Shown here one piece after another: positions 15,083 through 41,483 of a DNA stretch of 64,000 nucleotides. The DNA comes from Paenibacillus hexagrammi. GTDB lineage: Bacteria > Bacillota > Bacilli > Paenibacillales > NBRC-103111. Position numbers and translations under genes: made by a program. The stretch covers positions 5,187,247 to 5,251,246 of the forward strand of contig NZ_CP090978.1 in the NCBI RefSeq assembly GCF_021513275.1, written 5' to 3'. Each line of letters begins with the position of its first letter. The first letter of the stretch is position 1. Below the pieces are notes generated by a model. That model searched no databases and was not told where the DNA came from. It saw only the letters and a list, made by a program, of their open reading frames with translations.

Positions 15083-15189
15083 ATTACGCTTTACGCATAG
15101 ATTAGCTGGCCAGATAGATGTACAAAAGGAAGTACACTCATGCAGCCGTTTCCCCCTCTCCTATTCCCGCGTAGGCGATGGTACTGACA

Positions 15190-15350
15190 TTCAACAGATA
15201 TCCTGACTTGCGGATCGTAGCTAATCTCCCGTCTTCCCATCCTTCTTAAAAAGGATAGTGACATCTTGAAAGCAGCTCCCCGCTTACAGTGGCGCGACCG
15301 TGCCGGATTCTCACCGGACTTCCCTGTTTGGTTACCGAATGCGGACTGAA
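15190..15350 (-). promoter_or_regulatory. Cobalamin (B12) riboswitch aptamer
   Basis: The minus strand reads '...GGGAAGUCCGGUGAGAAUCCGGCACGGUCGCGCCACUGUAAGCGGGGAG...AAGUCAGGAUAUCUG'. The conserved GGUG/AAUCCGG core, the GCCACUG motif and a B12-box-like AAGUCAGGA all occur in canonical order. Confidence 0.8.
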
Positions 15351-15386
15351 AGGCCTTAGCATACGGTTCACTTTTAATCACTAAAA

Positions 15387-26765: not shown

Positions 26766-29700
26766 CTATTCAAACGCCTCATTTCTATTACTGTCCCGTG
26801 TCTGTTCCCATTCTCTCACTTTTCGAATGCTTTGCTCAAAATTAACTTCTTCTTTTATTGCCCACTCAGCTACCATGACGTTTTCATGGCCTTTAAGTTC
26901 AGTTAGTAAAGCTAGACGAGTCTGTAAAATATTAGCTAGGGATCCACTCCATGATGGTGGTCTAAAAGATTCTTTGAAATGATTAAGTACTTCTACAGGG
27001 CTTGGCGCTTGTATAATAAATTGTTTTGCTAATTTTGTCCAACAAACTACCCCATTATCTTCCATCGATTTATAAGGCATAAGTATTGAAGCAGCTGTTA
27101 TGAACCTTTGTGTAGGTTCTTCTTTACACCAATCGAGAAGTATTTCATCATCAATATGTGCTAATGGATTTTTAGGTCTAATACTATGGAAGATCCAATA
27201 CATATCGTCTATTGTTTCCTCGTTCAGAAACGTATCCATGAAAACAATTGGTTGGGTAGCTGCAAGTGCCACGAGCACATCGTCATAATCCGTGGAATAA
27301 ATGTCGTGCTCTATGAATGCTTTAAGAAGTCTCGAGCATAAAAATCGAACCAGTTCCGTTGAACCTCTATCTTTCATACAAATTTTTATGATTGTCGACA
27401 GCTTTGAATCCAAACTATGAATAGAGTTATCTTTTCGTAAAAAAAGATAACGAGAAATAAGCTCATAAGCAGACTCCTTGATAATTTTACTTATTTGATC
27501 AACATTCTGTCGGTGAATTCTCATATATAGAAGTTCAATAGATACAGTTATCCCTTCTTCATTATTAGAAATTAATGTTAGTAGTTCTGAAAGCTCAAAA
27601 TCACTAATTTCATGCCTTCTTGCATAAGCTAATTGTCTATACATCCACATAGGTGCTTTCCCAACTACTAGTGATTGCTTAAGTCTTTCAACACCTTTTG
27701 AATCTAACTGCGTGCTACTCTGTAATAAAGGAAAAGCTGCACTCCATACTGGATCGACAACTGCTGTATTCAAAAGATCGTTACATAATTGTGTATCTCT
27801 AAGAGACAGCTCATCTAAAAATCCTCCAACAGCTTGATAGTTACGTTTTGATTCATCAATTTTTTGCAAATAGATTCTTAAGATCTCCCATACCATTTTA
27901 GGGTTACTACACCCTTCAGCGAGACCTTGACCGAAATAAAATAATCTATTCCCTGATTCAGATAAGAGCTCTGGAAGCAATTCTATATAAATTTCCTCGT
28001 TCAGGCCTACTTCCTTACCTATTGATCGTGTTATTTTATCTACCATTTCATAACTTTTTTCGGGATCTTCGTCGTCATCTTCAAGTACATCAATTAAATC
28101 GTATGGATGACCTTTTGAAAAAGCGTACAATCTTGCTCGCTCAATTAACGTTGATGGTATTAGTATACGTTCCAATTCTTCTAATTGTTTTATTATTTCA
28201 GTACTCATTTCCTTGTTATCATACCTGAGGATGGACTTTACAGCTATCCATCCCTCTTTCCATACAAATTTCTTCGAGATAGTGATAGCAGCCGAATATA
28301 ATTCGTCGAACATACCAACACCTACCCAGAGTTCCCTAAACCTTTCAGCTAATAGATTCATTGCTTTGTTCGAGAACCCCAAATCTGAGATACTAACGTT
28401 AACAGCATAGTCAATAAACAACTTGAACCATCGAATTACTCCATCATTTGTTTGAGGGAAATAACCATAGTCCCTTGAATGTGCACCAAATTCGAAATCA
28501 TTATATGAACTAATACTCCATGCTTGGAGAGAAGCACTTAACAAAGAGAATCCTAACTCAATCTTTTCGTTTTGCTTTGAATACAACAACCTCTCAATGA
28601 CACTTAGCCTCTGAACGGCCGTAGCATGAGTACCCGAAAGCTTTATATAAAACAGCGATTGGAGCGATTTTCTTATAGAGTTCTGATTTTCATTCTGTCT
28701 TTCTGATAACGCAAAGTGGCAAAGTAAATCAGTTGATCGGATAAACATTTCTTTTTCATATGCTAAAGACCTCAAAAGTCTCGTAATTTGTAAATAATGA
28801 TGGTTCTCGCGACTAAAAAACCACTCGCTTCCTTTTTTATTAGCTGCTCTTTCAATTGCTTCTAGTGTTTTTTCAGGATCAATAGGCGCAACATTAATTA
28901 ATAAATCTATCCCTAATGAGTCTAAACTCAAAACATCCCCCAAAAGTCCTTCTTCAACTAACCACATTCTACTTATTTCCCTTGCCGCTTTGCAATCATG
29001 AAGGTATCTAAGACGTCGGGAGAATGATCTCATAAGTCTTTCTGATGCCCGATTTCCAAAAATATTCAAGATAAACTCAACAGGAATATCTTCAAGTGCA
29101 CGTTTTGCCAACCTGTTAGCAACAGCATGTGGCAACACTGCTCTCCATATGCCACGTTGCTGAACTAACTCGCGGCGTTGTAATTCCTTAACAAATTGAT
29201 ATAGTTTCAGCACGGGGATTCCTATAATAGAGCTTAGGATTTCTAATTCACCATCTTTACCTTGATCAATTTGGCAGTTAAAAGAATAAACAAGTGAACA
29301 AACCTTAGCAACACTAAATAGATCATCACTAGGCTCATTTCGCTGTAAAAATAATCTCGTGAATAGATCCTCATCCTTTAGATGAGAAACATCATCACCG
29401 TGAGAAATCGTTTTACATAGTGCGATAGCAATACGTGCATTTCCTCCTGAAAAATTAGCAACAATTCTAGTACAAACTTCATTAATATGCGGAAAGCGAA
29501 TCTGAATAACCTTTTCCACTATTTCCTTAGAAGCAGGTTCTAATCGAAAAACCTCTGTTTCTTCCGGTTGATCTTCTCTTACATCATATTCAATAGTAAT
29601 CAAACTTACTTGACTACCATTTGCCAAACATATTGTTGTTAGTGGCTTATGCAAACTCGGTGGACAATTATCGATTGCCAATAAAGAATATTTTCGAGTA

Positions 29701-30569
29701 GCTACTAATTGTTCAGCAAAATTCTGCGGATCCGGGATAGGACGATTAGCGATATCGCAATAAAAAACTTTGGTCTTGTCTAAGGCGTTTTCTCCGATCC
29801 TTTCATCAAATAGCGCTTGCAATAACCGCGTTTTACCAACTCCAGACAGGCCAACTAAACGTACTACAGATCCAGGCTTATTTAGAGTTACACGAAGATT
29901 GTTTATACCATCTTTAACAGATAGCCCTTCGGATAGACGTGTTGTACTACTATACAGACGAATGTGACCATCTGTAAGATACTCTTCGTTCAATTCTCCT
30001 AAGGGATTAGACCAATTCTCAAAAGGCCTCCAACCTTGAATCGGACGACCTATCTTACCTCTAACCCAAAGAATAAGTGAAGGATGACATCTCACCCAGG
30101 CAGCTACTCTATCCCGGTCATAAAAATCGAGTTTTATCGTTGCTGCATACGGACTGTCTGAGATTGCTTCCTGCATCGCCCTTCTTCTCTTCATAAGTGC
30201 TAAATCTGATGTAGAGCCTTGACTACTTACAATGATATATGCACCATTAGCAGCAGCTAATTCATTAATTACTTCGCGCAATTCTCCATCTGGGCGCATT
30301 TCTTCTTTTATTTTCGCGGATGGCATATCAGGTTTCTTTACTTGAAATCCAGTATTTGACCGTGGTATGTAACTATCATTATGAAATGTTGAGTTCAGTT
30401 CAACCCTAACATCTAATCCCCCATCTTTGGCATTATGATGTCCACCCCAAGTTACACCCGATGTTGGTAATCCTATAGAATACAATTCAGCCTCACATAA
30501 AAGTCCGATAAGTGCCCGAAGATCAACATCACTTAAGTGTTTTATATCTTCTCCAGAAATTTCAAGCAT
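26766..30569 (-). CDS. STAND-class NTPase (1267 aa) with N-terminal Mrr-like PD-(D/E)xK nuclease domain and C-terminal helical repeats; Avs-like anti-phage candidate
   Basis: N-terminal 'AKDGGLDVRVE...GFQVKK' matches the Mrr catalytic (DGG.D...Q.K) pattern. Walker A 'GLSGVGKTRL', Walker B 'LLAIDNC', then >800 aa of alpha-helical repeats. The gene is markedly AT-rich relative to its flanks. Confidence 0.5.
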   Translation of the reverse strand: MLEISGEDIKHLSDVDLRALIGLLCEAELYSIGLPTSGVTWGGHHNAKDGGLDVRVELNSTFHNDSYIPRSNTGFQVKKPDMPSAKIKEEMRPDGELREVINELAAANGAYIIVSSQGSTSDLALMKRRRAMQEAISDSPYAATIKLDFYDRDRVAAWVRCHPSLILWVRGKIGRPIQGWRPFENWSNPLGELNEEYLTDGHIRLYSSTTRLSEGLSVKDGINNLRVTLNKPGSVVRLVGLSGVGKTRLLQALFDERIGENALDKTKVFYCDIANRPIPDPQNFAEQLVATRKYSLLAIDNCPPSLHKPLTTICLANGSQVSLITIEYDVREDQPEETEVFRLEPASKEIVEKVIQIRFPHINEVCTRIVANFSGGNARIAIALCKTISHGDDVSHLKDEDLFTRLFLQRNEPSDDLFSVAKVCSLVYSFNCQIDQGKDGELEILSSIIGIPVLKLYQFVKELQRRELVQQRGIWRAVLPHAVANRLAKRALEDIPVEFILNIFGNRASERLMRSFSRRLRYLHDCKAAREISRMWLVEEGLLGDVLSLDSLGIDLLINVAPIDPEKTLEAIERAANKKGSEWFFSRENHHYLQITRLLRSLAYEKEMFIRSTDLLCHFALSERQNENQNSIRKSLQSLFYIKLSGTHATAVQRLSVIERLLYSKQNEKIELGFSLLSASLQAWSISSYNDFEFGAHSRDYGYFPQTNDGVIRWFKLFIDYAVNVSISDLGFSNKAMNLLAERFRELWVGVGMFDELYSAAITISKKFVWKEGWIAVKSILRYDNKEMSTEIIKQLEELERILIPSTLIERARLYAFSKGHPYDLIDVLEDDDEDPEKSYEMVDKITRSIGKEVGLNEEIYIELLPELLSESGNRLFYFGQGLAEGCSNPKMVWEILRIYLQKIDESKRNYQAVGGFLDELSLRDTQLCNDLLNTAVVDPVWSAAFPLLQSSTQLDSKGVERLKQSLVVGKAPMWMYRQLAYARRHEISDFELSELLTLISNNEEGITVSIELLYMRIHRQNVDQISKIIKESAYELISRYLFLRKDNSIHSLDSKLSTIIKICMKDRGSTELVRFLCSRLLKAFIEHDIYSTDYDDVLVALAATQPIVFMDTFLNEETIDDMYWIFHSIRPKNPLAHIDDEILLDWCKEEPTQRFITAASILMPYKSMEDNGVVCWTKLAKQFIIQAPSPVEVLNHFKESFRPPSWSGSLANILQTRLALLTELKGHENVMVAEWAIKEEVNFEQSIRKVREWEQTRDSNRNEAFE

Positions 30570-30735: not shown

Positions 30736-31131
30736 TTATATTTTTATTAAAGAAACACCAAGCTCGTTTTGGACAAAATTCATATCGGAATCTCGAGACA
30801 ATAAAGTTAATTCATTAACCATAGCAGTTGCAATAATGATAGCATCAGGTGTTTTAAGCTTACGCCTTTTTGCTTTCTGCTCCCTACGAATGATCCCGGC
30901 TAGCTTTGCACTCTCCGAAGTCACCTCTAAACATCTCCTTGAGGTAAATAGCTTTTCTGCACGCAGTTGTTCCTCTGGTTTTAAACCCGCGAATACTTCA
31001 CATTCTGTAATCGTAGAAAAGTAGATAGACATTTTATCTCTCGCAGCTTGCTTGATAAAATCGATTACGTTTTTCTCGTTAATCAATATGGCTATCGCGA
31101 TATTTGTGTCAAGTAAATAACCTCGACTCAT
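30736..31131 (-). CDS. vapC: PIN-domain toxin VapC
   Basis: 'YLLDTNIAIA' N-terminal PIN acidic motif and 'DAIIIATA' C-terminal motif. Confidence 0.75.
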   Translation of the reverse strand: MSRGYLLDTNIAIAILINEKNVIDFIKQAARDKMSIYFSTITECEVFAGLKPEEQLRAEKLFTSRRCLEVTSESAKLAGIIRREQKAKRRKLKTPDAIIIATAMVNELTLLSRDSDMNFVQNELGVSLIKI

Positions 31132-31361
31132 GAATCCCATTCCTCACGTGAGCGTTTCACTTCATCAAGTAGTTCTTTGCCTCTGTCCGGTGTTAAAGTC
31201 CCCGCAGCCTCAAGAAGATCATCGATGGAATACTCATCATCTTCGGCTTCAACGGTTTGTCTTTCAAGATCAATGGTCACCCGGGAGTGAGTTATCTGAA
31301 ATTTTTGAAGCATAACTTTAATAGCATTTGCAGTTTGAAGATCAATCTTTTTGGGGATCAA
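31128..31361 (-). CDS. vapB: Putative VapB-type antitoxin
   Basis: Small acidic protein directly upstream of vapC with a 4-nt overlap. Confidence 0.45.
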   Translation of the reverse strand: MIPKKIDLQTANAIKVMLQKFQITHSRVTIDLERQTVEAEDDEYSIDDLLEAAGTLTPDRGKELLDEVKRSREEWDS

Positions 31362-31444: not shown

Positions 31445-32557
31445 TTATCCTGCCTGCTTACCCCCACCTAACAGCGAATTCAGCTGCTCCAGCAGATTGC
31501 CTCCGCCTGTAAGTGAAATGGTGCCGATTTTCTCGCAAATTTTCTCAAGGAATTCGAGCTCCTTCAAGCGGAACAAGGTCTGGTTCTCGTCCATCAGCTT
31601 CGCTGTATTCAGCAGGCTGCGGGTGGAGGCTGTTTCTTCACGGCGGGTGATCAGGTTCGCTTGGGCTTTCTTTTCCGCTAGAAGCACAGTGTTCAAGATC
31701 TCTTTGATATCTCCCGGAAGGATGATGTCCTTGACGCCTGCGGAAAGGAATTTGATTCCGTACTCCTCGCTTTTGTCGTTCAGACGGGATAGCACAAAGG
31801 CCGCAATCTCCTGCTTCATCCGCAGCAGATCGTCAAGCTTCAAGGTTCCTACATACTCACGGAGAATCAGCTGCAGCAGCACATAGATTTGTTCCTCAAA
31901 GGATTTGATCTCCAGCGCACGCAGCGGATCCGTGATTTGGTACTGGCAGACGAAGTTCAGGCGAAGCGTCACTTTGTCTTCCGTCATGATTTCCTGCCCG
32001 GTCATATCCAGCTGCTGCCGCCGCAAATCTACGGTATTGACCGATGCTAGGACGGGTCCCTTCCAGAAGTAATACTTCCCCGGGGTGAGCTGCTTTTGCA
32101 TCACATTGTTGTAAAAAAGCATCCCTGTCTCGTAGTTGGCCACTTCAGACGTATAGAAATAGCCTGCGACCTTCGCCAGGATCGCTCGATCTATCTCAGG
32201 TCCAATCTCAGGCTGACGGATATCGACCCGAGTAAATTCATGGCGCTTCAGCACATTCCAGAATGCATATTTGCCTGCTGTCAAAAGCGATACGAACTTC
32301 CCATCTTCATAATGAAGCGCGTACTCATGATCCTGAACATGGATGACCGTAAGCTCGTCAAGCAGCCGCTGGTCTTGTAAAAATAGGTTCAAGTCTTTCC
32401 CTTGCACATGAAAAGGCTTGGTTACATTCAATAGCACGATTTCATCATCGGAAAATGGCGCAGGACGGTAAACGCCCGGCTGCAGACGCTTCATGTAGCT
32501 GCCTTTTTTAAAGAGTAAACCTCGTTCGTCGGATTTGACGATGTATCTTTTCAACAT
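31445..32557 (-). CDS. SPFH/band-7 (slipin/YdjI-like) domain protein without obvious TM segment
   Basis: The C-terminal half shows an SPFH pattern ('KLDDLLRMKQEIAAFVLSRLNDKSEEYGIKFLSAGVKDIILPGDIKE'). The N-terminal ~170 aa form an extra domain. Confidence 0.55.
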   Translation of the reverse strand: MLKRYIVKSDERGLLFKKGSYMKRLQPGVYRPAPFSDDEIVLLNVTKPFHVQGKDLNLFLQDQRLLDELTVIHVQDHEYALHYEDGKFVSLLTAGKYAFWNVLKRHEFTRVDIRQPEIGPEIDRAILAKVAGYFYTSEVANYETGMLFYNNVMQKQLTPGKYYFWKGPVLASVNTVDLRRQQLDMTGQEIMTEDKVTLRLNFVCQYQITDPLRALEIKSFEEQIYVLLQLILREYVGTLKLDDLLRMKQEIAAFVLSRLNDKSEEYGIKFLSAGVKDIILPGDIKEILNTVLLAEKKAQANLITRREETASTRSLLNTAKLMDENQTLFRLKELEFLEKICEKIGTISLTGGGNLLEQLNSLLGGGKQAG

Positions 32558-32841
32558 AATAGACCTCCCGCTACACGGAATGTGTGTGATTTGACCTTAT
32601 TTAAAGGGAATCCTCCTGTGTCCGATGCGGAGCCGATCTTAAGGATCATCATGCCTGTGCTTGACCGCAAAATGTGGGGATCTCGATGTGAACTCACCTT
32701 CAGCTCGCATACGCTCATCCTGCTATCTGGCGGGGTCGCACTTTGTTCTGATCCGGTATCCGCATGGCTGCAAAGCATCATTCTCAGTGCCCGCCCGAAG
32801 GTAGGCTGAGGGCTCCCGATAAGAGGTCTCATAGATTGTTC

Positions 32842-32915
32842 TTCTGCTCGATGAAAAGTCGAGTGCTCTACCACTGAGCGAATCGCTTGACAGGCGATAT
32901 GGGAATTGAACCCAT
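32842..32915 (-). ncRNA. Circularly permuted tRNA-like element (T-arm -> capped acceptor stem -> D-arm -> anticodon-like hairpin); candidate Y RNA-like (YrlA-type) RNA module
   Basis: The minus strand reads aUGGGUUCAAUUCCCAu (T-arm, TPsiC loop UUCAAUU), AUCGCCU-GUC-AAGCGAU (7-bp acceptor-like stem capped by a triloop), UC, GCUCAGUGGUAGAGC (canonical D-arm) and CUCGA-CUUUUCA-UCGAG (anticodon-like arm). The flanks can pair as UCUCA.../...UGAGA. Confidence 0.5.
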
Positions 32916-33095
32916 TCAACTTGTGAGAGTGCTGCCGAAAGCGGCGTTACAGAATACCTGTTCACAGAGTGACAAGTACTGCCGGATCATGTGGAGATCC
33001 TGACCTGGGTAACGAGCTTCCTCACAACACCCAAAATGTATAGTAAACAGCATGATTGCTGTAGTACCTGAAGGTAAGGTTTGAAAAGTTAATTA

Positions 33096-33964
33096 TCAAT
33101 CCTTGTAAGGATCAAATTCGTCGGCTCCCGCCATGCATACCCCGATCGGCTTCAACACATGAAGAATTTCGATGGTTTCCGAGTGAGCATCCAGGACCTC
33201 TTGCAGCTTCCGGTACACAAAAGGACTCTCATCCGTCCCCGCGCCGCGGAGCTCTACGCCGTACTTACGGACGGCTTCCAGCATTTGTTCTATGGAGATT
33301 TGACCGCCGCTGCGGGACTTCGTTTTCCAATTCATTTTGCCGGCAGCTTGGGTACGGCTCATAATTCTACCGGCTCCATGTACGGTGCTGTAATAAGCGT
33401 CCCTGTTCTCCGCGGAATCCTTCCCCTGTACGATGACCGATATGTCCCCCATACTTCCACCAATAAAGCCCAATTGTCCTGGCGCCGAAGGCGTTGCCCC
33501 CTTGCGAACCACTACCGTCTGCTTACCTTCGTGCTCCTCCATCCAGGCAAAATTATGATGATTGTGCACCTCGAATTCCGCTTCCGCGGATCATCGAACA
33601 GCTCATGATCGACCTTCTCACTATTAGCCCGCCCTATACCAAACGAAACTTTACGTGCAATCTCATCCATCCAGCGGCTCAAGTGAGGCATTGCCTCTTG
33701 AATGTGGATATTCGTCCGAACCGCCTTGTTCCCGCAGGCAATATCATAGCCGACACCCGAGGGTGAAATTTGCCCCTCATAGGCGATCACACCGCCAATC
33801 GGCTGACTGTACCCTTTGTGATGGTCCGCCATCAGCAGAGCTTGTGCCACGCGTCCGGTGCTCGCACACATTTTGGCTTGGGCCAGTGCGCTTTCATCCG
33901 CCTTGCCCCATACTCTCACGCCATCTATCGACTGATAAGCCATGATCATCTGCTCCTTTATCAC
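33096..33964 (-). pseudogene. rtcB: rtcB RNA ligase remnant: N-terminal and C-terminal parts present, ~150-aa central region deleted, plus a frame change
   Basis: N-part 'MADHHKGYSQPIGGVIAY...GVGYDIACGN' and C-part 'EFEVHNHHNFAW...GFIGGSMGD...STVHGAGRIMSRT' align to the ends of E. coli RtcB. The GNHF/HSGSRG central motifs are missing. Confidence 0.75.
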
Positions 33965-34215: not shown

Positions 34216-34842
34216 ATGGCCAAGGAAAGCTTTGATAAAGAGATTCAATTCCTGCGTATGCTGGCGCTGACAAGCGGAGCCTACAGCAGGCAGCAATTCG
34301 CGGAGCGGCTGGGCATTTCTGTCCATACCTTTGATAAAACCATCCGCAAGCTTAAAGATGTCGTAACTACCCTCTACCAACGTCTGCCCGAAGAGCACAG
34401 CAAAGAATGGGAAGATACGCTTCAGTTCAAATATCGGGACTCAACCGATCCGATGCTCCTGTTTGTTTTCCGGGCCAAATCCGTAAAAGAATCGGAAAGC
34501 ATGCGCCTCTCGCTGATCTTGAGCGCCCTTAAGGAACAAGCGCTTACCGCTGCGGAGCTCATGGATCTATGCTCTGGTGAAATGCCTCCCGAGTCATCCC
34601 TGCCGGACGAAAAGACGATTCGAAGCGATCTCAAATATTTGGAAGAAGTCGGCGTCATTCAGCGGGAATCTCAAACCCGACCATACCGCTTCGGTATTCG
34701 GAACGACTTCCTTCAGGATTTAACGAATGAAGAACTCCTGGATCTGTATGATTTTGTAGATATCATGTCCAATACCCAAATTCCTTCCGTACAGGGCTAC
34801 CTGCTTCGGGAGGGCTTAAAAAAATCATTTTCTTCGAAATGA
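34216..34842 (+). CDS. HTH-domain transcriptional regulator (two wHTH-like segments), first gene of a WYL regulator cluster divergent from rtcB
   Basis: 'QFAERLGISVHTFDKTIRKL' and 'LTAAELMDLCSG...IRSDLKYLEEVGVI' helix-turn-helix-like segments. Confidence 0.5.
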   Translation: MAKESFDKEIQFLRMLALTSGAYSRQQFAERLGISVHTFDKTIRKLKDVVTTLYQRLPEEHSKEWEDTLQFKYRDSTDPMLLFVFRAKSVKESESMRLSLILSALKEQALTAAELMDLCSGEMPPESSLPDEKTIRSDLKYLEEVGVIQRESQTRPYRFGIRNDFLQDLTNEELLDLYDFVDIMSNTQIPSVQGYLLREGLKKSFSSK

Positions 34843-34858
34843 TGCAGCGAAGCATGTC

Positions 34859-35533
34859 ATGGAGCCATTTCAGTACAAGTATCACTATCCCTCCCGCATC
34901 CTGGATGAGGCCCATCTCTATCCGTTACTTGCTGCCATACGTAACCGGAGAAGAGTAACCTTTCTCTATTTCTCGCCCAAAACAAAGAAAAGCTACAGAG
35001 CCAAAAATACGAACCCCTTATTTGAACGTGAATCGGAGGGGGAGGGCAATCAAGTTGTGGCTACACCGCTGAAAATCGTCTACGACCATCAATATGGCCG
35101 GTGGTATTTGCTCGGTGTAGGCCGAACGGGGATTACCAAATTCCGTGTGGAGGGCATGACCCAAATTGAGGAGAAGGATGCTGTCGATGAACAGACCTTT
35201 CAAAGCCAGCTCGCCGCTTTAGAAAGAAGTATACAATACAGCTGGCTCATTGATACGGGACGAACCGTTACCGTGAAAGCCCGATTCTTTAAACCCGGTC
35301 CGTCAGACCAGGATTTTATTAAAGAGCGGGTTCTCCTCCAAGGGCAGTGGGGGCAAATCACTCAGGAAGATGAGCACTCGTTTATTTTCGAAATCGAGGT
35401 GAATGGGGTCTTGGAAATCAAGCCCTGGCTGCGAAGCTTCGGTTCGAGCTGCGAAGTGCTGGAGCCGGCGCATCTACGCCGCGAGATGATTGCCGAATGG
35501 AAGGAGATCCGCGCTTACTATGAATCTATTTGA
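34859..35533 (+). CDS. WYL-domain protein with WCX-like C-terminal extension
   Basis: 'YDHQYGRWYLLGV' WYL core and a C-terminal 'IKPWLRSFGSSCEVLEPAHLRREM' WCX-like segment. Encoded in a different frame from the upstream HTH ORF (16-nt gap). Confidence 0.65.
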   Translation: MEPFQYKYHYPSRILDEAHLYPLLAAIRNRRRVTFLYFSPKTKKSYRAKNTNPLFERESEGEGNQVVATPLKIVYDHQYGRWYLLGVGRTGITKFRVEGMTQIEEKDAVDEQTFQSQLAALERSIQYSWLIDTGRTVTVKARFFKPGPSDQDFIKERVLLQGQWGQITQEDEHSFIFEIEVNGVLEIKPWLRSFGSSCEVLEPAHLRREMIAEWKEIRAYYESI

Positions 35534-36326
35534 AAAGATTTTCAACTATCAAATTCTGTCGCGCTTAGAGGACTCCGGCACCTTCGTGGTCACCTCACAG
35601 GAACGGGCCTGGCTGCGGCTGATGCTTCAGCATCCTGCTGCCGCCGAAGCTTTCGCGCCGGATACGCTGCAGAAGCTTGCTGCCATGCTGGATGGAGACT
35701 CGCAGCTCGATGTATCGGGGCATCTGGTTGAAAAGGCGAATGTCTCCGAGCAGCCGGTATACCATCCGCTCTTGCGCCCGCTTCGGCGCCTAATTATGAA
35801 TCGATCAGGCATGCGAATTTCATACCGGTTAAAGAATGGGACGATTTGCTCCGAAGTAAGCGGACTTCCTTACCATTTAGAATATTCCATGGTCAAACGG
35901 GAATGGTATCTGCTCTGGTATCATCTCCGCCATCGTGCCTTCATGAGCACCAGACTGAACAAGATCGATTCCGTCAGCTACGAGTCCATCGACCCGGCTA
36001 CTGCCTCCGATCTTTTTGCATGGATTAAGCAAACGCTAGAAGCTAGAAAAACGGAAGTGACTGTCGAGGTAGACCGAGAGTATAACCGGGAATTATCACG
36101 GATTTTGTATGCTTTCTCCTGCTTCGACAAGGCGGTTGATTATGAGGAGAAGACGGATACTTACCGAATCCGCATTCGTTTGATGGGAGATGAGATGGAA
36201 TATTTGCTGTCTAAAATCCGCTTTCTCGGCAAGCGGGTGCGGGTCATCGAAGGCTGGTATTTGAGAAAACGGATGCTGGAGGCTTCGATGAAGGCTTTGG
36301 CGCGATATGGGGAATTGGCTGAGTGA
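35520..36326 (+). CDS. Second WYL-domain protein (PafC-like partner?)
   Basis: 'VKREWYLLWYH' WYL core and C-terminal 'GKRVRVIEGWYLRKRM'. Start set at MNLFEKIF, overlapping the upstream stop. Confidence 0.6.
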   Translation: MNLFEKIFNYQILSRLEDSGTFVVTSQERAWLRLMLQHPAAAEAFAPDTLQKLAAMLDGDSQLDVSGHLVEKANVSEQPVYHPLLRPLRRLIMNRSGMRISYRLKNGTICSEVSGLPYHLEYSMVKREWYLLWYHLRHRAFMSTRLNKIDSVSYESIDPATASDLFAWIKQTLEARKTEVTVEVDREYNRELSRILYAFSCFDKAVDYEEKTDTYRIRIRLMGDEMEYLLSKIRFLGKRVRVIEGWYLRKRMLEASMKALARYGELAE

Positions 36327-36596: not shown

Positions 36597-39500
36597 TTAC
36601 ACGTACTGTGGTCCTCTAAGCTGCTCTAGAATTTGCGGATCCTTGATCTTCGTATCTTGCGCCAGCATCACAATCTTGGACAATATCTCCGATGTTTTCG
36701 GGTCTTCGTCGATGAAGGGCAGGAACAGCTTACCTCGATGCTGGGAGTGGACCGGCAAGATATATAAGCTGCCGGCTGCTTGCTTTTGGACAGTGCCGCT
36801 TCCTAAGTGAACACCGTATTCTCCGAGAGATCCTGTAATACGGGCAAAATTCCCATCCAGACGTACATTGCCAATTTTCATCAGCCTTAAAGATTCAGTG
36901 ACGATAACTTTGCGAAGCTCGATGGTGGTCAGACTTGCTTCAGGATCGACTCCACCTGCGTGCGCCGTGCTTACTACCAAGTCTACATCGCGCATAATTT
37001 CAGAGAAGATGATGCCTGGTATCGCACTCAGCTCCAGAGGCTTATAAGTCTTCCGGTCGATAAAGGAGACGGTTTCGAGCGTTGGCGCTTCAATATCCGA
37101 TGGAGCGAACCAATCCGCCAAGGCATACACCTGCGCGATGATATTCTCCTTGTGATACACCTTCTGCAGTCCTTCTTCATAGCTGACCGTCCAGAGTCTG
37201 TTTTTCAAGAGGGCCACAGCCCGTTTAGGCTGAATTTGATGACCCGCGTATCGTCTTGAAACCGAGCCGCTCTCGAGCTCATCTTGGTTAGGCAGATACA
37301 GCTCTCTGAACACCTGCTTGAACGGCTGCTTCAACTGCTTGTCGAATAAGAATTTCTGATACTTGCTCCACTGGCCGCTTTGGTACAAATGCAAAGGGTG
37401 AGCGATGCATAGCGTATCTTCCGCGTTTAATCGATAGGTTTCACCGTCCGGGCTTTCCAAACACCCCTCTGCATAAAAGCCAAGTGCTTCACCAGTTTTA
37501 AATACAAGCGTACGAAGAATAGGCGCGATCGTCGGATTGTTCATCAAATTGGAGAGCTCATGATGGGTAAACATGCTTTCTGACTCCATGGATTTCTCAA
37601 ATTCCCGTTTGGCTCGTTTGTTTTGTTCCCTGAGGCTGCTTATGGTTTCTTTTAGAGATATCACGTAGGGATGCTTGTTATATTTCGATGGCACAGCTTT
37701 CAACGTCTTACCTTGTTTGCTTGCCTCCAGGTCCGCCCACCCGATCTCATCAATCACGATCCTCACCTGCAGCTCATCAACGGCTGTCGGTTCCAACAAA
37801 TGAAGGACATCTTCCATTTTTCTGGCTTCCATGTCCCATTTAAGTCGAATCACATCCGAATAGCCGGCATTGCGGGATAGATTATCAAGAGCAATAGCTG
37901 CAGCCTTCGCTTCACTCGCGCTGCGCTGTGCACCGAATGTTTTGCTCTCTTTGAGAAACTGCTGAATGTATTCATATCTCTCCAGCACCTCCCTGTCGCC
38001 GCTTTCACCGATCGGAATTAGACTATAGCTGAGTAAATGATCTTTATTCCGCTTGAACTCCACAGAAGTTCGAATTTCAGCTGCATCCAGCTTGCCCAGG
38101 ACAGCGTCTGCGAACAGCTGGGACCTGCGATGATTGGCTCCTGCGGATATGTATTTCGCACACTGGTACAGCATATGGAAACGTTTCTCCCCCAGTTCCC
38201 GGTACGCTTCCATAAACCAGCGGATATCAAAAGCTCCATCGTTAAACTCCGTTGGCGAGATCGAGGAATAATGAGCAACGATCGTCTCTTTCTCCGCAGA
38301 AAAGTTTTCATTCACGTGAGCATGGAAATACCAGGCGGCACTTCGCAGCCCCTCCCATTGTAAATACTCCGAAATAAGCTCGATCCATTGGGGGGCATAC
38401 ATAGCTGCTTCCAACAGCCTTTTCTCTGAAATATTTCTTCCTCGCAGCATCTCCGTAAGCTTCTGTACATCATCCCCTTCTTTCGGATGACAGACGCGAA
38501 GAAGATGGCTGAGAGCTTCTTTTTTACTTCGATTACCGTAAATGTACCCGCGCACAAACGTTTCCTGGCTCAGGGCAGTTAAAATCGCGACGAAATACTC
38601 CATACCCTCATAATAGGAGATTCCCATGGCCAGATGGGATACATCCGTTGGCAGGTCGCCCCGGTTGAGCTCCAGCTCCAGTATGACGGAAAGGATACGT
38701 TCCTTAAATCGCTGGATCGCGGGAAACTTGTTGGCAAAATCCTCCCTTTTTTCTGTGATGGTTCTCATATGCCATTGGCTTCTTCGCTCACGAATCATAA
38801 GTTCCTGATACATCGTGTTATCGTTGATAAGCCCCAACTCAAGTGCCCTGACAAGGTCCTTTAGCTCAAGACGAAACTCTTCGTAGTCTGTTAGGATATC
38901 GAGATTGAGCTTCATAGCATAATACTCCAAAAACGAGCGATCGTCATAAACGGCATTGCCTGCCCAAGAGATCCACGGCGAATAAAAGAAGCCCCATGCT
39001 TTCGAACTGTCCTTAACATCCTGCTTCTGTAGAGCATTGATGATTTTATTTAAGATCCTGCTTGATATAGTGAAGCGTTCTTGGATATCACTGTCATGAA
39101 AATAGGCGAATACGAGAGAGTGAACCTGCTGCATATACTCGAGATTGGCGCTAAAGTCGAAGAAAGTATGGATCGTTTTCATCGGATATAGCTTAGATAA
39201 AACCTTCTTCCCCCATTCTCCAAGGGGCTTATAGCGGTTTACTTCCCAGCCTGTCAGCTTATCTGCATCGTATTTATACAAGGAATCGGAGCTAAGATAA
39301 AAGACGATTTGAATCAGCTCTTTGGCTGTAAAGCCGCTTTCTCTTAAGTATTGGTCCCATACCTCCGCCAATGGATACCCTTCCAAGTGCGATGCTTCGT
39401 GATCCTGCTTCTGGAAACCCTTTAGCCGATCAAGCCGTGCTCCCAGCAACAAGCTTTCCTTGCTCCCGCTGTATCTTTCACATTTGTATTCATAATCTCT

Positions 39501-41483
39501 GTGCTTATGAACCAGCTCCGACAAGCCTTGTAAAAACGCCTTGATCTTGTCGGCTGACAGGTCAAAGAAATCCTTGACTTGAATCTCAGCATAATCGTGC
39601 AGCTTATAAAGCTCCTGCTTCTTATGCGGATCGTATAAACCGAACCCGCTATGCAGCCCCAATTGTTCCTTCTGGCGTAGTCGTTCTACCAGCGGTCGTT
39701 CTTTATCGGAGGGTTCTTGAATAGCTGCTAAATGATGACTAACCTGCTCAAACTGTGCATGCCTTTCCTCATCTTCCTTCAGCACACAGAGCATTTCGAG
39801 CGCACCTAACCGCTGTAATTCAAGCGGACTATCCAGCAGCGTCTCAAGAGATTGATCTAACAGCTCGTGGTCTTGCTTCAAAAGGATCTTCATAGCGCTT
39901 TGACGCAGCGCGCCGGTCTTCAGCTTCAACAGACCTTGAACGGTTACGGTGTCCTGTGGGGTAAGGCGCATGTTATGAATACGCTTCAATGCTGCCTCGC
40001 GATTGGTCATACTTTTATCCGATAAGGAATCAAAAAGGAACTGCCTCTGCACAGGATTGTCTGCATCGCTGGTAAATGTTTGGATCAATGCGTTGCGCAG
40101 GTCCGGGCTAACCCGATCCTTGAGGGCAATGACCTGAGCGATCATTTCCGCATCCAGATCATAAGCCGCGAGATAAAGCATTTTGTTCGCTATAGCGTCC
40201 GTGGTGTGCGAGTATGCCATCCAATCAAAAACCTTCGATTGTTCGGTCACTTCCTGCTTAGGCATGTTCAACAGCATCGTTCTAAATTGATGAAATTGAC
40301 GAATTCGCAGCTCTTTATCCTCTAGCGTTTGGACCCGATCCAAGGTCGGTTTATGCTTAAGGACCTCATAGTCCGGATGCGAGCGCCAGACACTCGACCA
40401 TTTGTACACATAGTTTCGAATAACAAGCGACTGCAGCTCAAGTTCGGTCTGCTCGATATAGGGAAAAGCAAGCGCAAACCTTAGTGCATCATTTTGGCTT
40501 TGCAACAGGAAATATTGCGCCGCGATTTTTTGGTACGTGTCTCCCTGCTCCATGATGTGGCGCATCGGTTCTGGAAGATGATTCTCTTCCCTGACAGCAG
40601 TCGCCCAAAGGGAAAAATAAAGCTTATGCACATTCGGATCTTTGGCCCATTCCTTGCACCGCTCCTCATCACATAAACACTCGTATGCATACTCGACGCA
40701 CTGCTTAACCACTCTCGTGTTGGCTGCCTCCAGTGCTAAACCCGTCCATACATCCAGCGCACGGATGACAGAGCTATACCGAATAAAGTCATGATCGATA
40801 ATGATCTTGAGCATGAATGTAAATGCTTCCAGGGTACCTTCATCCATAGACTCTACGATGCTTTGGCGAAGTCCCTCCTGCAGCCGCGCTGCGATCAGCA
40901 TTTGTCCTAGCATCTGGTGGGCTTCTGCTTGGTGACTGAAGACAATGCCGCGAATCATCGCCCGATTGAGGAGAGCGGTATTGTTGTCTCCAAACAAAAT
41001 GTCCTTCAGGGCATCAAAGACCTGCCGGTTATTTTGATCCAGTTCATAGGCAAGTATATAGGAAACCATGGAGCTGTCAGCCAGATTGGCTGGTCTGGTC
41101 GTCGTGAGATAGTCTAGGAGAGAAAATTCCGACTTGGTGAGATCGTAGAGGGCGTAAAGCTTGCGAACCATGCCTTCCACATGAACACGCAAATTCTTGG
41201 TCCGAAACGGCCGGCGCGAATATCCGATACTGTAGGGGTAGTCAGTTATGTGCGTGGCTAAATAGCTCATGACCTGCGCCTCGTAATCCCCTGCCTTTTG
41301 TTTCACGATAGAGATAAGAGGGGCAAAATATGACTCCTGCTTCCCCTTCGCATCAATCTCGTTGAGAAGCGTTTCGATCTCCTTGTAAGCCAAACGTCGC
41401 TCGTACGGTTTTTTCTCTAAATTCTCCTGTATGAGTTGCTCCAACTTCTTGGTCGCTTCATCTTTGCGCTGAAAGAATAGCAT
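36597..41483 (-). CDS. Giant cytoplasmic protein (1628 aa) of unknown function with helical-repeat body and a DUF4132-like C-terminal region (YehI/MolR-like)
   Basis: No signal peptide or TM segment. Long alpha-helical repeat composition. The C-terminal ~200 aa resemble DUF4132-type proteins; this is recalled from memory, not computed. Confidence 0.4.
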   Translation of the reverse strand: MLFFQRKDEATKKLEQLIQENLEKKPYERRLAYKEIETLLNEIDAKGKQESYFAPLISIVKQKAGDYEAQVMSYLATHITDYPYSIGYSRRPFRTKNLRVHVEGMVRKLYALYDLTKSEFSLLDYLTTTRPANLADSSMVSYILAYELDQNNRQVFDALKDILFGDNNTALLNRAMIRGIVFSHQAEAHQMLGQMLIAARLQEGLRQSIVESMDEGTLEAFTFMLKIIIDHDFIRYSSVIRALDVWTGLALEAANTRVVKQCVEYAYECLCDEERCKEWAKDPNVHKLYFSLWATAVREENHLPEPMRHIMEQGDTYQKIAAQYFLLQSQNDALRFALAFPYIEQTELELQSLVIRNYVYKWSSVWRSHPDYEVLKHKPTLDRVQTLEDKELRIRQFHQFRTMLLNMPKQEVTEQSKVFDWMAYSHTTDAIANKMLYLAAYDLDAEMIAQVIALKDRVSPDLRNALIQTFTSDADNPVQRQFLFDSLSDKSMTNREAALKRIHNMRLTPQDTVTVQGLLKLKTGALRQSAMKILLKQDHELLDQSLETLLDSPLELQRLGALEMLCVLKEDEERHAQFEQVSHHLAAIQEPSDKERPLVERLRQKEQLGLHSGFGLYDPHKKQELYKLHDYAEIQVKDFFDLSADKIKAFLQGLSELVHKHRDYEYKCERYSGSKESLLLGARLDRLKGFQKQDHEASHLEGYPLAEVWDQYLRESGFTAKELIQIVFYLSSDSLYKYDADKLTGWEVNRYKPLGEWGKKVLSKLYPMKTIHTFFDFSANLEYMQQVHSLVFAYFHDSDIQERFTISSRILNKIINALQKQDVKDSSKAWGFFYSPWISWAGNAVYDDRSFLEYYAMKLNLDILTDYEEFRLELKDLVRALELGLINDNTMYQELMIRERRSQWHMRTITEKREDFANKFPAIQRFKERILSVILELELNRGDLPTDVSHLAMGISYYEGMEYFVAILTALSQETFVRGYIYGNRSKKEALSHLLRVCHPKEGDDVQKLTEMLRGRNISEKRLLEAAMYAPQWIELISEYLQWEGLRSAAWYFHAHVNENFSAEKETIVAHYSSISPTEFNDGAFDIRWFMEAYRELGEKRFHMLYQCAKYISAGANHRRSQLFADAVLGKLDAAEIRTSVEFKRNKDHLLSYSLIPIGESGDREVLERYEYIQQFLKESKTFGAQRSASEAKAAAIALDNLSRNAGYSDVIRLKWDMEARKMEDVLHLLEPTAVDELQVRIVIDEIGWADLEASKQGKTLKAVPSKYNKHPYVISLKETISSLREQNKRAKREFEKSMESESMFTHHELSNLMNNPTIAPILRTLVFKTGEALGFYAEGCLESPDGETYRLNAEDTLCIAHPLHLYQSGQWSKYQKFLFDKQLKQPFKQVFRELYLPNQDELESGSVSRRYAGHQIQPKRAVALLKNRLWTVSYEEGLQKVYHKENIIAQVYALADWFAPSDIEAPTLETVSFIDRKTYKPLELSAIPGIIFSEIMRDVDLVVSTAHAGGVDPEASLTTIELRKVIVTESLRLMKIGNVRLDGNFARITGSLGEYGVHLGSGTVQKQAAGSLYILPVHSQHRGKLFLPFIDEDPKTSEILSKIVMLAQDTKIKDPQILEQLRGPQYV

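Follow-up and report, generated by a model that had tools for sequence, protein, structure and literature searches.

The minus strand of the 64-kb stretch of Paenibacillus hexagrammi DNA analysed here (64,000 nucleotides, called the window below) carries at positions 32915-32847 a permuted tRNA-like fold, which comparison with related sequences confirms as genuine. Taking the parts of this reading jointly, we consider it likely that this module is the core of an RNA of about 440 nt that is encoded in the same direction as the adjoining SPFH gene, belongs to the b7a-tRNA class and serves the SPFH protein as cofactor or scaffold.

The gap that holds the module lies between an rtcB remnant (rtcB') and the SPFH gene and measures 538 nt. 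On the minus strand, the order is rtcB', gap, SPFH gene, small ORF and PIN gene. The main genes of the locus are:

31445-32557, minus strand: SPFH/Band-7 ("slipin") gene, 370 aa, intact; Pfam Band_7, E 2.8e-26
33099-33943, minus strand: rtcB pseudogene, residues 1-119 and 247-408 of a 408-aa RtcB in two frames, residues 120-246 deleted
34216-36326, plus strand: pair of WYL-domain regulators, divergent from the RNA and the SPFH gene
34216-35533, plus strand: first WYL regulator (HTH-WYL-WCX), split by a +1 frameshift near 34819
35520-36314, plus strand: second WYL regulator, intact

The permuted tRNA-like module

The sequence-only reading had described, on the minus strand, a T arm, a closed acceptor-like stem, the dinucleotide UC, a D arm and a 5-bp stem with the 7-nt loop CUUUUCA. 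All of these elements are present, and they are arranged as follows:

32915-32847, minus strand: whole tRNA-like module, with T arm, closed acceptor-like hairpin, UC, D arm and anticodon-like hairpin
32915-32899, minus strand: T arm, AUGGG/UUCAAUU/CCCAU
32898-32882, minus strand: acceptor-like hairpin, AUCGCCU-GUC-AAGCGAU, with no free ends and no CCA
32881-32880, minus strand: linker UC, at the position of tRNA residues 8-9
32879-32865, minus strand: D arm, GCUC-AGUGGUA-GAGC
32864, minus strand: single A between the D arm and the anticodon-like arm
32863-32847, minus strand: anticodon-like arm, CUCGA-CUUUUCA-UCGAG

The acceptor-like stem had been given as 7 bp closed by a triloop. A hairpin does stand there, but its seven positions comprise six standard pairs and one C-A mismatch, and a 5-bp stem with a 7-nt loop is an equally possible reading. 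The four hairpins of the module emerged unprompted in the minimum-free-energy fold of the entire gap.

General searches gave little at this site. ARAGORN called neither a tRNA nor a tmRNA, and Rfam at the gathering threshold returned nothing there; its one match in the whole 64-kb window was a cobalamin riboswitch elsewhere (15176-15365, minus strand, 94.6 bits, full length). With E values up to 10, the site yielded no family beyond YrlA, tRNA and noise, and no riboswitch, T-box or tmRNA. The Rfam tRNA model scored 22.4 bits (threshold 29) and covered the D and anticodon arms. YrlA scored 24.3 bits with an E value of 0.011 (gathering threshold 69) over model positions 31-81 of 114, which are its T, acceptor-like and D elements; it is the only Rfam family that matches this T-AS-D core. 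By themselves such sub-threshold matches would be suggestive, and not significant for a 64-kb window.

The fold was then compared among relatives. The first comparison used four orthologous SPFH loci, fetched by exact protein look-up, and a conserved non-coding stretch of 550-660 nt preceded the SPFH gene in 4/4. A species-level scan (one genome per species) found more than 600 SPFH relatives, and the 80 loci taken for analysis came from Paenibacillaceae, other Bacillota including many Clostridia, Bacteroidota and Spirochaetes. A T-loop motif was found 250-650 nt 5' of the SPFH start in 77 of the 81 loci with enough sequence. With a simple parser (T arm, closed 4-8-bp hairpin, usually D arm), 94 units were recognised in 75/81 loci, and the loop of the acceptor-like hairpin had 3-9 nt throughout these 94 modules. 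Seventeen loci contain two to four tandem T-acceptor-D units, usually with the anticodon-like hairpin after the last one.

The tandem units were seen in Clostridia, Bacteroidota and Spirochaetes (L030, L035, L041, L049, L052, L056, L057, L073-L076, L078, L080, L082 and L084). L052 has four of them, and the last unit of such arrays often carries a class-II-like D arm (GCCAAGUGGUUAAGGC).

Two covariance models were built. Model R1 was seeded from eight sequences and yielded 73 instances from 61 sources, at most 760 nt 5' of SPFH; its other matches were only junctions within genuine tRNA arrays, and the same false positives have been described for YrlA searches (Chen et al. 2014, PMC4201824). Model R2 was rebuilt from 50 relatives with the window sequence left out. 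This model, made from relatives alone, matched 32847-32915 once in 64 kb with 78.2 bits and an E value of 3.8e-18, against 13.5 bits for the runner-up. The runner-up itself (35849-35913, minus strand, E 0.11) lies within the second WYL gene and is probably due to chance.

In the model-guided alignment, 94.6% of cells in the module are paired versus 62.3% in shuffled alignments, a figure that the fit to the model inflates somewhat. The covariation score is 0.640 versus 0.156 for shuffles, with 0/500 shuffles reaching the observed value and slid controls at or below 0.078. All 20 base pairs covary, that is, they are altered on both sides among relatives. The T-arm helix is 97.3% paired with 5/5 pairs covarying, and 6/6 pairs of the acceptor-like hairpin are altered on both sides. 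This hairpin is very diverse in sequence among loci and always self-complementary, and its diversity is plain in the raw sequences, independent of the model-guided alignment. MAFFT alignments of the module (A3, A4) misaligned the variable acceptor hairpin, and the model-guided alignments A6 and A7 were used instead. Because R2 matches uniquely and both pairing and covariation exceed the shuffled controls, the tRNA-like fold is real and not a chance arrangement.

The conserved positions are those of a tRNA elbow. The T loop reads UUCGAAU or UUCGAUU in 38/50 relatives, GG is kept in the D loop, and the dinucleotide at tRNA positions 8-9 is UA in 28/50 and UC in 7/50; some Paenibacillus have a shorter D arm. 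In the aligned sequences, the middle domain is thus shown to keep the elbow determinants (T loop UUCRANY, D loop GG, U8). The anticodon-like loop has 7 nt in 31/50 relatives, with U33 in 29 and A38 in 27 of these 31, and its middle "anticodon" triplet takes 18 different values among the 31 loops. Neither the processable acceptor ends nor the conserved anticodon of a canonical or permuted tRNA appeared across the 94 modules and 31 loops. Since the tRNA shape is kept without a fixed triplet and with a closed acceptor end, the element is, by its predicted fold, a non-aminoacylatable tRNA mimic and not a tRNA. Together with the silence of ARAGORN and the lack of a tmRNA match in Rfam, this bears out the earlier exclusion of an ordinary tRNA and of tmRNA.

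A three-domain RNA ahead of the SPFH gene

One earlier expectation about the surroundings of the module was not supported. The flanks had been thought able to pair with each other, but there is no conserved stem between them and each continues into a conserved domain of its own. The stretch of about 70 nt that had been described is a fraction of an RNA of about 440 nt with three domains. The outer domains contain the following elements:

33025-32920, minus strand: 5' domain, with its core at 33014-32945
32830-32588, minus strand: 3' domain, with bipartite closing helix, hairpin, core and stem
32828-32824 with 32597-32593, minus strand: closing helix of the 3' domain, part 1, GACCU with AGGUC
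32817-32808 with 32615-32606, minus strand: closing helix, part 2, GGGAGCCCUC with GAGGAUUCCC
32806-32789, minus strand: hairpin of the 3' domain
32764-32753, minus strand: 3' core UGCGGAUACCGG, predicted to pair with UCCGCA at 32631-32626
32754-32750 with 32647-32643, minus strand: 3' stem GGAUC with GAUCC, closing a variable insert of about 100 nt
32642-32638, minus strand: UUAAG of the 3' domain

The 5' domain is closed by GUGAG/CUCAC and CGUUA/UAACG and has the hairpin AGGAUC..GAUCCG, and its conserved element reads CAG-UAC[hairpin]GUAUU-CUG in the window. Among relatives, the motif CRGUGC-hairpin-GYAUNCYG stands 60-70 nt before the first T arm in 48/81 loci, including Leptospiraceae and Sphingobacteriales. 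In a MAFFT-only alignment of 41 sequences from three phyla, 80.1% of cells in four helices are paired versus 60.5% after shuffling. Covariation is 0.551 versus 0.210 (0/500 shuffles), with slid controls at or below 0.173, and pair 47-80 switches between AU (27 of the 41 sequences) and GC (the other 14), with zero mismatches. RNAalifold recovered two hairpins independently, but its junction differs from the one proposed here.

The invariant bases of this domain, CAGUGC...GUAUNCUG (32955-33005, minus strand; column pairs 17-46 and 18-45 of alignment A8), allow two incompatible pairings, either CAG/CUG with a bulge or GUGC/GUAU plus GC/GC. They may form a tertiary motif or a protein-binding site.

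For the 3' domain, the bipartite closing helix was found in Paenibacillus-type RNAs. RNAduplex over the long flanks gave a diffuse result (mean z -1.9), and a test of cognate versus non-cognate strands was used instead: cognate strands pair with a mean of -28.2 kcal/mol versus -18.3 for non-cognate ones, and a strand's own partner was the best in 13/25 cases. Each position of this helix shows 3-5 pair types. The GGAUC/GAUCC stem also covaries among relatives, and GGAUAYCG occurs downstream of the module in 63/81 loci. Conservation of the 3'-core helix GCGGA/UCCGC is too high for covariation testing. The MAFFT alignment of the 3' domain (A9) had a register shift between subgroups and was excluded from the pair counts.

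Since conserved structure continues on both sides of the module, in a covarying 5' domain and in a 3' domain with its long covarying closing helix, the RNA extends over about 440 nt, roughly 33025-32590 on the minus strand. Covariation in the alignments is shown for each of its three domains. Its 3' end lies about 36 nt ahead of the SPFH start codon, and it is read in the same direction as that gene. No Rfam family covers the 440-nt RNA in the window or the relatives searched. We found no convincing intrinsic terminator between the RNA and the SPFH ORF, either in the window or in three relatives, and without one the RNA may never be a free species.

A scan of viral contigs with a pattern of the 5' domain plus T arm returned 109 stretches, none with an SPFH gene, and these are probably chance matches. 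One IMG/VR contig (L094, 11163-12458) has an RtcB gene with the pattern match directly after it; it has no R2 match and no SPFH gene.

Gene linkage and the SPFH protein

In Bacillota, Bacteroidota and Spirochaetes, 61-75 of the 81 loci carry the module ahead of the orthologous SPFH gene and on its strand. Neighbours were counted with local tblastn searches of the window plus 83 loci, with RtcB scored within 5 kb on the same strand. RtcB was present in 43/84 loci, which together with the adjoining remnant upholds the assignment of the element to an RtcB-type RNA-repair locus. A WYL1-type regulator was counted in 31/84 loci, a second WYL protein in 14/84 and an RlaP-type nucleotidyltransferase in 12/84. 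Many loci consist of the RNA and SPFH alone (for example L001 and L003). The position of RtcB varies, being 5' of the RNA in L002 and 3' of SPFH in L004, and the same pair of WYL genes flanks the RNA-SPFH unit in relatives. Because the RNA is found 5' of SPFH across three phyla and RtcB in about half of the loci, SPFH and not rtcB is the constant partner. The gene-order comparison shows a conserved unit of RNA plus SPFH, for which RtcB, the RlaP-type nucleotidyltransferase and the WYL regulators appear frequent but dispensable. The SPFH gene, which had served the sequence-only reading merely as a boundary of the gap, is instead the invariant neighbour of the RNA across the three phyla. An SPFH gene also lies inside the rtc locus of P. 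aeruginosa (PMC13086221).

The rtcB gene adjoining the gap had been called a remnant, and its internal deletion and two reading frames confirm this; the frame changes at 33587/33584. The pseudogene is orthologous to the 408-aa RtcB of P. sabinae T27 (CP004078, L004), which has an intact locus; there the gene stands 3' of SPFH-RlaP, here 5' of the RNA. The frameshift in the HTH-WYL-WCX regulator could be a sequencing error or a sign of locus decay. As judged from their sequences, the RNA and the SPFH gene look intact in P. hexagrammi while rtcB and one WYL regulator have decayed. We infer from this that the pair either relies on a ligase gene at another site or acts independently of a ligase.

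Directly 3' of the SPFH gene lie a PIN-domain (VapC-like) gene and a small overlapping upstream ORF (30736-31361, minus strand), a probable toxin-antitoxin pair. Two giant ORFs flank the locus, one of 1628 aa with DUF5724, DUF4132 and DUF7737 (36597-41483, minus strand) and, on the other side, one of 1267 aa without a Pfam match (26766-30569, minus strand). Ordinary tRNA arrays of 5-17 genes were seen in L077 (1544-2774), L082 (1836-2629) and L028 (2486-4107), 0.9-3.5 kb 5' of the SPFH gene and 1-2.5 kb 5' of the RNA. Their nearness could be a coincidence or reflect a functional link to tRNA repair.

The SPFH protein of the window is 100% identical to the P. hexagrammi "slipin family protein". 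It has no predicted transmembrane segment (maximum 19-residue hydropathy 0.94) and is thus predicted to be soluble. Its AlphaFold model (mean pLDDT 77, with low confidence for the C-terminal 70 residues) combines an N-terminal half rich in beta structure with an SPFH domain and helices at the C terminus. Among solved folds it comes closest to stomatin, HflK/C, prohibitin, erlin, QmcA and flotillin, and it also matches major vault protein. The solved SPFH relatives (stomatin, HflK/C, vault and others) all form rings or cages. Judging from these relatives and from the gene linkage, the protein would oligomerise into a cage and bind RNA.

Proposed role and relation to known systems

By analogy with related systems, the most likely role of the RNA is that of cofactor or scaffold of an SPFH cage. 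A soluble SPFH oligomer would bind the conserved 5' and 3' domains of the RNA, and the exposed tRNA mimic or mimics would recruit or position tRNA-recognising repair enzymes, either RtcB or the nucleotidyltransferase. Alternatively, a displayed mimic might compete with real tRNAs for anticodon nucleases. Such a scheme would be analogous to a Y RNA that tethers Ro60 to an effector.

The RNA might instead be a cis-acting leader of the SPFH mRNA, sensing a ligand, a protein or RNA damage and setting translation or mRNA stability. It always lies on the same strand as SPFH and directly 5' of it, the missing terminator before the ORF would suit a leader, and A/T-rich -10-like sequences, judged by eye only, are conserved just 5' of the RNA. 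We nevertheless regard this explanation as unlikely, although it is the strongest of the rivals. No expression platform is visible, the SD sequence (32571-32562) lies outside the conserved helices, and the RNA core and the start codon lie between about 125 and more than 430 nt apart, depending on the locus. The riboswitch and T-box models are silent, and the tandem tRNA-like units of relatives are easier to reconcile with a scaffold than with a switch.

A decayed or rearranged tRNA gene without function, such as a junction of two tandem tRNAs, was also weighed, as there is a likeness to tRNA-Lys(UUU) in the D and anticodon arms, which the Rfam tRNA model covers, and R1 also matches junctions in real tRNA arrays. 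The comparative data, with compensatory pairing in orthologous loci, effectively refute it: a loop of 3-9 nt closes the acceptor-like hairpin, which covaries over 73 instances, the element keeps its place and direction with respect to SPFH across phyla, and the flanking domains are conserved too. We give this explanation practically no credence.

The sequence-only reading had itself favoured a YrlA-type Y RNA. YrlA has the order T, closed acceptor and D, is encoded with rsr and often rtcB, and bears GNCGAAN0-1G in a helix that binds Ro60 (Chen et al. 2014, PMC4201824). The T-before-D mimic, the closed acceptor and the RtcB locus of that proposal stand, the T-AS-D core is the part matched by the Rfam model, and relatives score 30-50 bits on it. 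YrlA and b7a-tRNA also occasionally exchange protein neighbours, with YrlA at times beside Band-7 genes (Wang et al. 2018, 10.1101/312249). The assignment to YrlA itself did not hold, as the score of the window element is far below the family threshold and the Ro-binding stem is unmatched there and deleted in the best relative. GNCGAAN0-1G is absent from the minus strand of 32558-33095, and 17/81 relatives have a match against a fraction of 0.20 in shuffles, which is the chance level. No Rsr had been noticed in the window, and in agreement with this no TROVE domain was detected in 12 window ORFs of 359-1628 aa or in the genes adjoining the RNA. The RNA tracks SPFH, not rsr. That it is a true YrlA-type Y RNA binding a Ro60/Rsr encoded elsewhere in the genome is accordingly very improbable.

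Gene context and a second-hand description make the element fit the b7a-tRNA class. As relayed by Wang et al. 2018 (10.1101/312249), Burroughs and Aravind predicted in 2016 a "band 7-associated tRNA" where RtcB adjoins a Band-7 protein; in that account it is said to resemble authentic tRNA, is proposed as a cofactor functionally interchangeable with YrlA and is stated, as of 2018, not to be experimentally validated. Where relatives have two modules, the Rfam tRNA model gives 31-40 bits (threshold 29) for the part that begins with the first D arm and ends with the second T arm, which would agree with the resemblance to an authentic tRNA in this second-hand account; the window element itself stays below that threshold with 22.4 bits. 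ARAGORN calls odd tRNAs in L024, L042, L047 and L057. Our search of the later literature on b7a-tRNA or SPFH-RtcB RNAs returned only Wang et al. 2018 and one survey of P. aeruginosa SPFH proteins. The extended architecture described here may be previously undescribed.

The present analysis supplies the exact coordinates of the element and a covariance model that finds it specifically, together with evidence that RNA and SPFH are the conserved unit, that RtcB is optional and that the RNA far exceeds the size of a tRNA. The element would justify an Rfam family. To our knowledge, the substrates and mechanism of bacterial RtcB loci and their tRNA-like RNAs are unsettled, neither YrlA nor b7a-tRNA has a defined role, and b7a-tRNA is not known to have been detected in experiments. 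As a tentative proposal, which we hold with more doubt than conviction, b7a-tRNA could be the visible tip of unrecognised three-domain RNAs of about 400-600 nt with one to four YrlA-like mimics, spread from Bacillota to Bacteroidota and Spirochaetes, which would form with soluble SPFH a cage-type RNP that handles damaged tRNA. If true, this bacterial cage RNP would be a prokaryotic counterpart of vault or Ro particles. The hypothesis of an SPFH cage plus a tRNA-mimic RNA is now directly testable in cultivable Paenibacillus.

Among known systems, the element resembles YrlA (RF02553) in its T-AS-D order, its conserved elbow nucleotides, its setting in RtcB repair loci and in not being aminoacylatable. 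It differs in lacking the Ro60-binding helix and motif and an rsr gene among the window ORFs searched, in scoring under the family threshold, in having its own anticodon-like hairpin where the stem of YrlA is made by the 5' and 3' ends, in being four times longer and in having SPFH as partner. With b7a-tRNA, as known second-hand, it shares a predicted tRNA-like RNA beside a Band-7/SPFH gene in an RtcB neighbourhood; set beside that description, the present RNA has the permuted order T-AS-D-AC, a closed acceptor, 5' and 3' domains and a length of about 440 nt. In the permuted tRNA genes of Cyanidioschyzon merolae, the 3' half with the T arm likewise precedes the 5' half with the D arm, and a circular intermediate leads to normal tRNAs whose CCA ends are free and whose anticodons are conserved. 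Unlike these, the element has an acceptor closed by a 3-nt loop and an "anticodon" that is not conserved. The vault particle, which unites major vault protein and its SPFH-like shoulder with vault RNA, also ranks among the nearest known systems.
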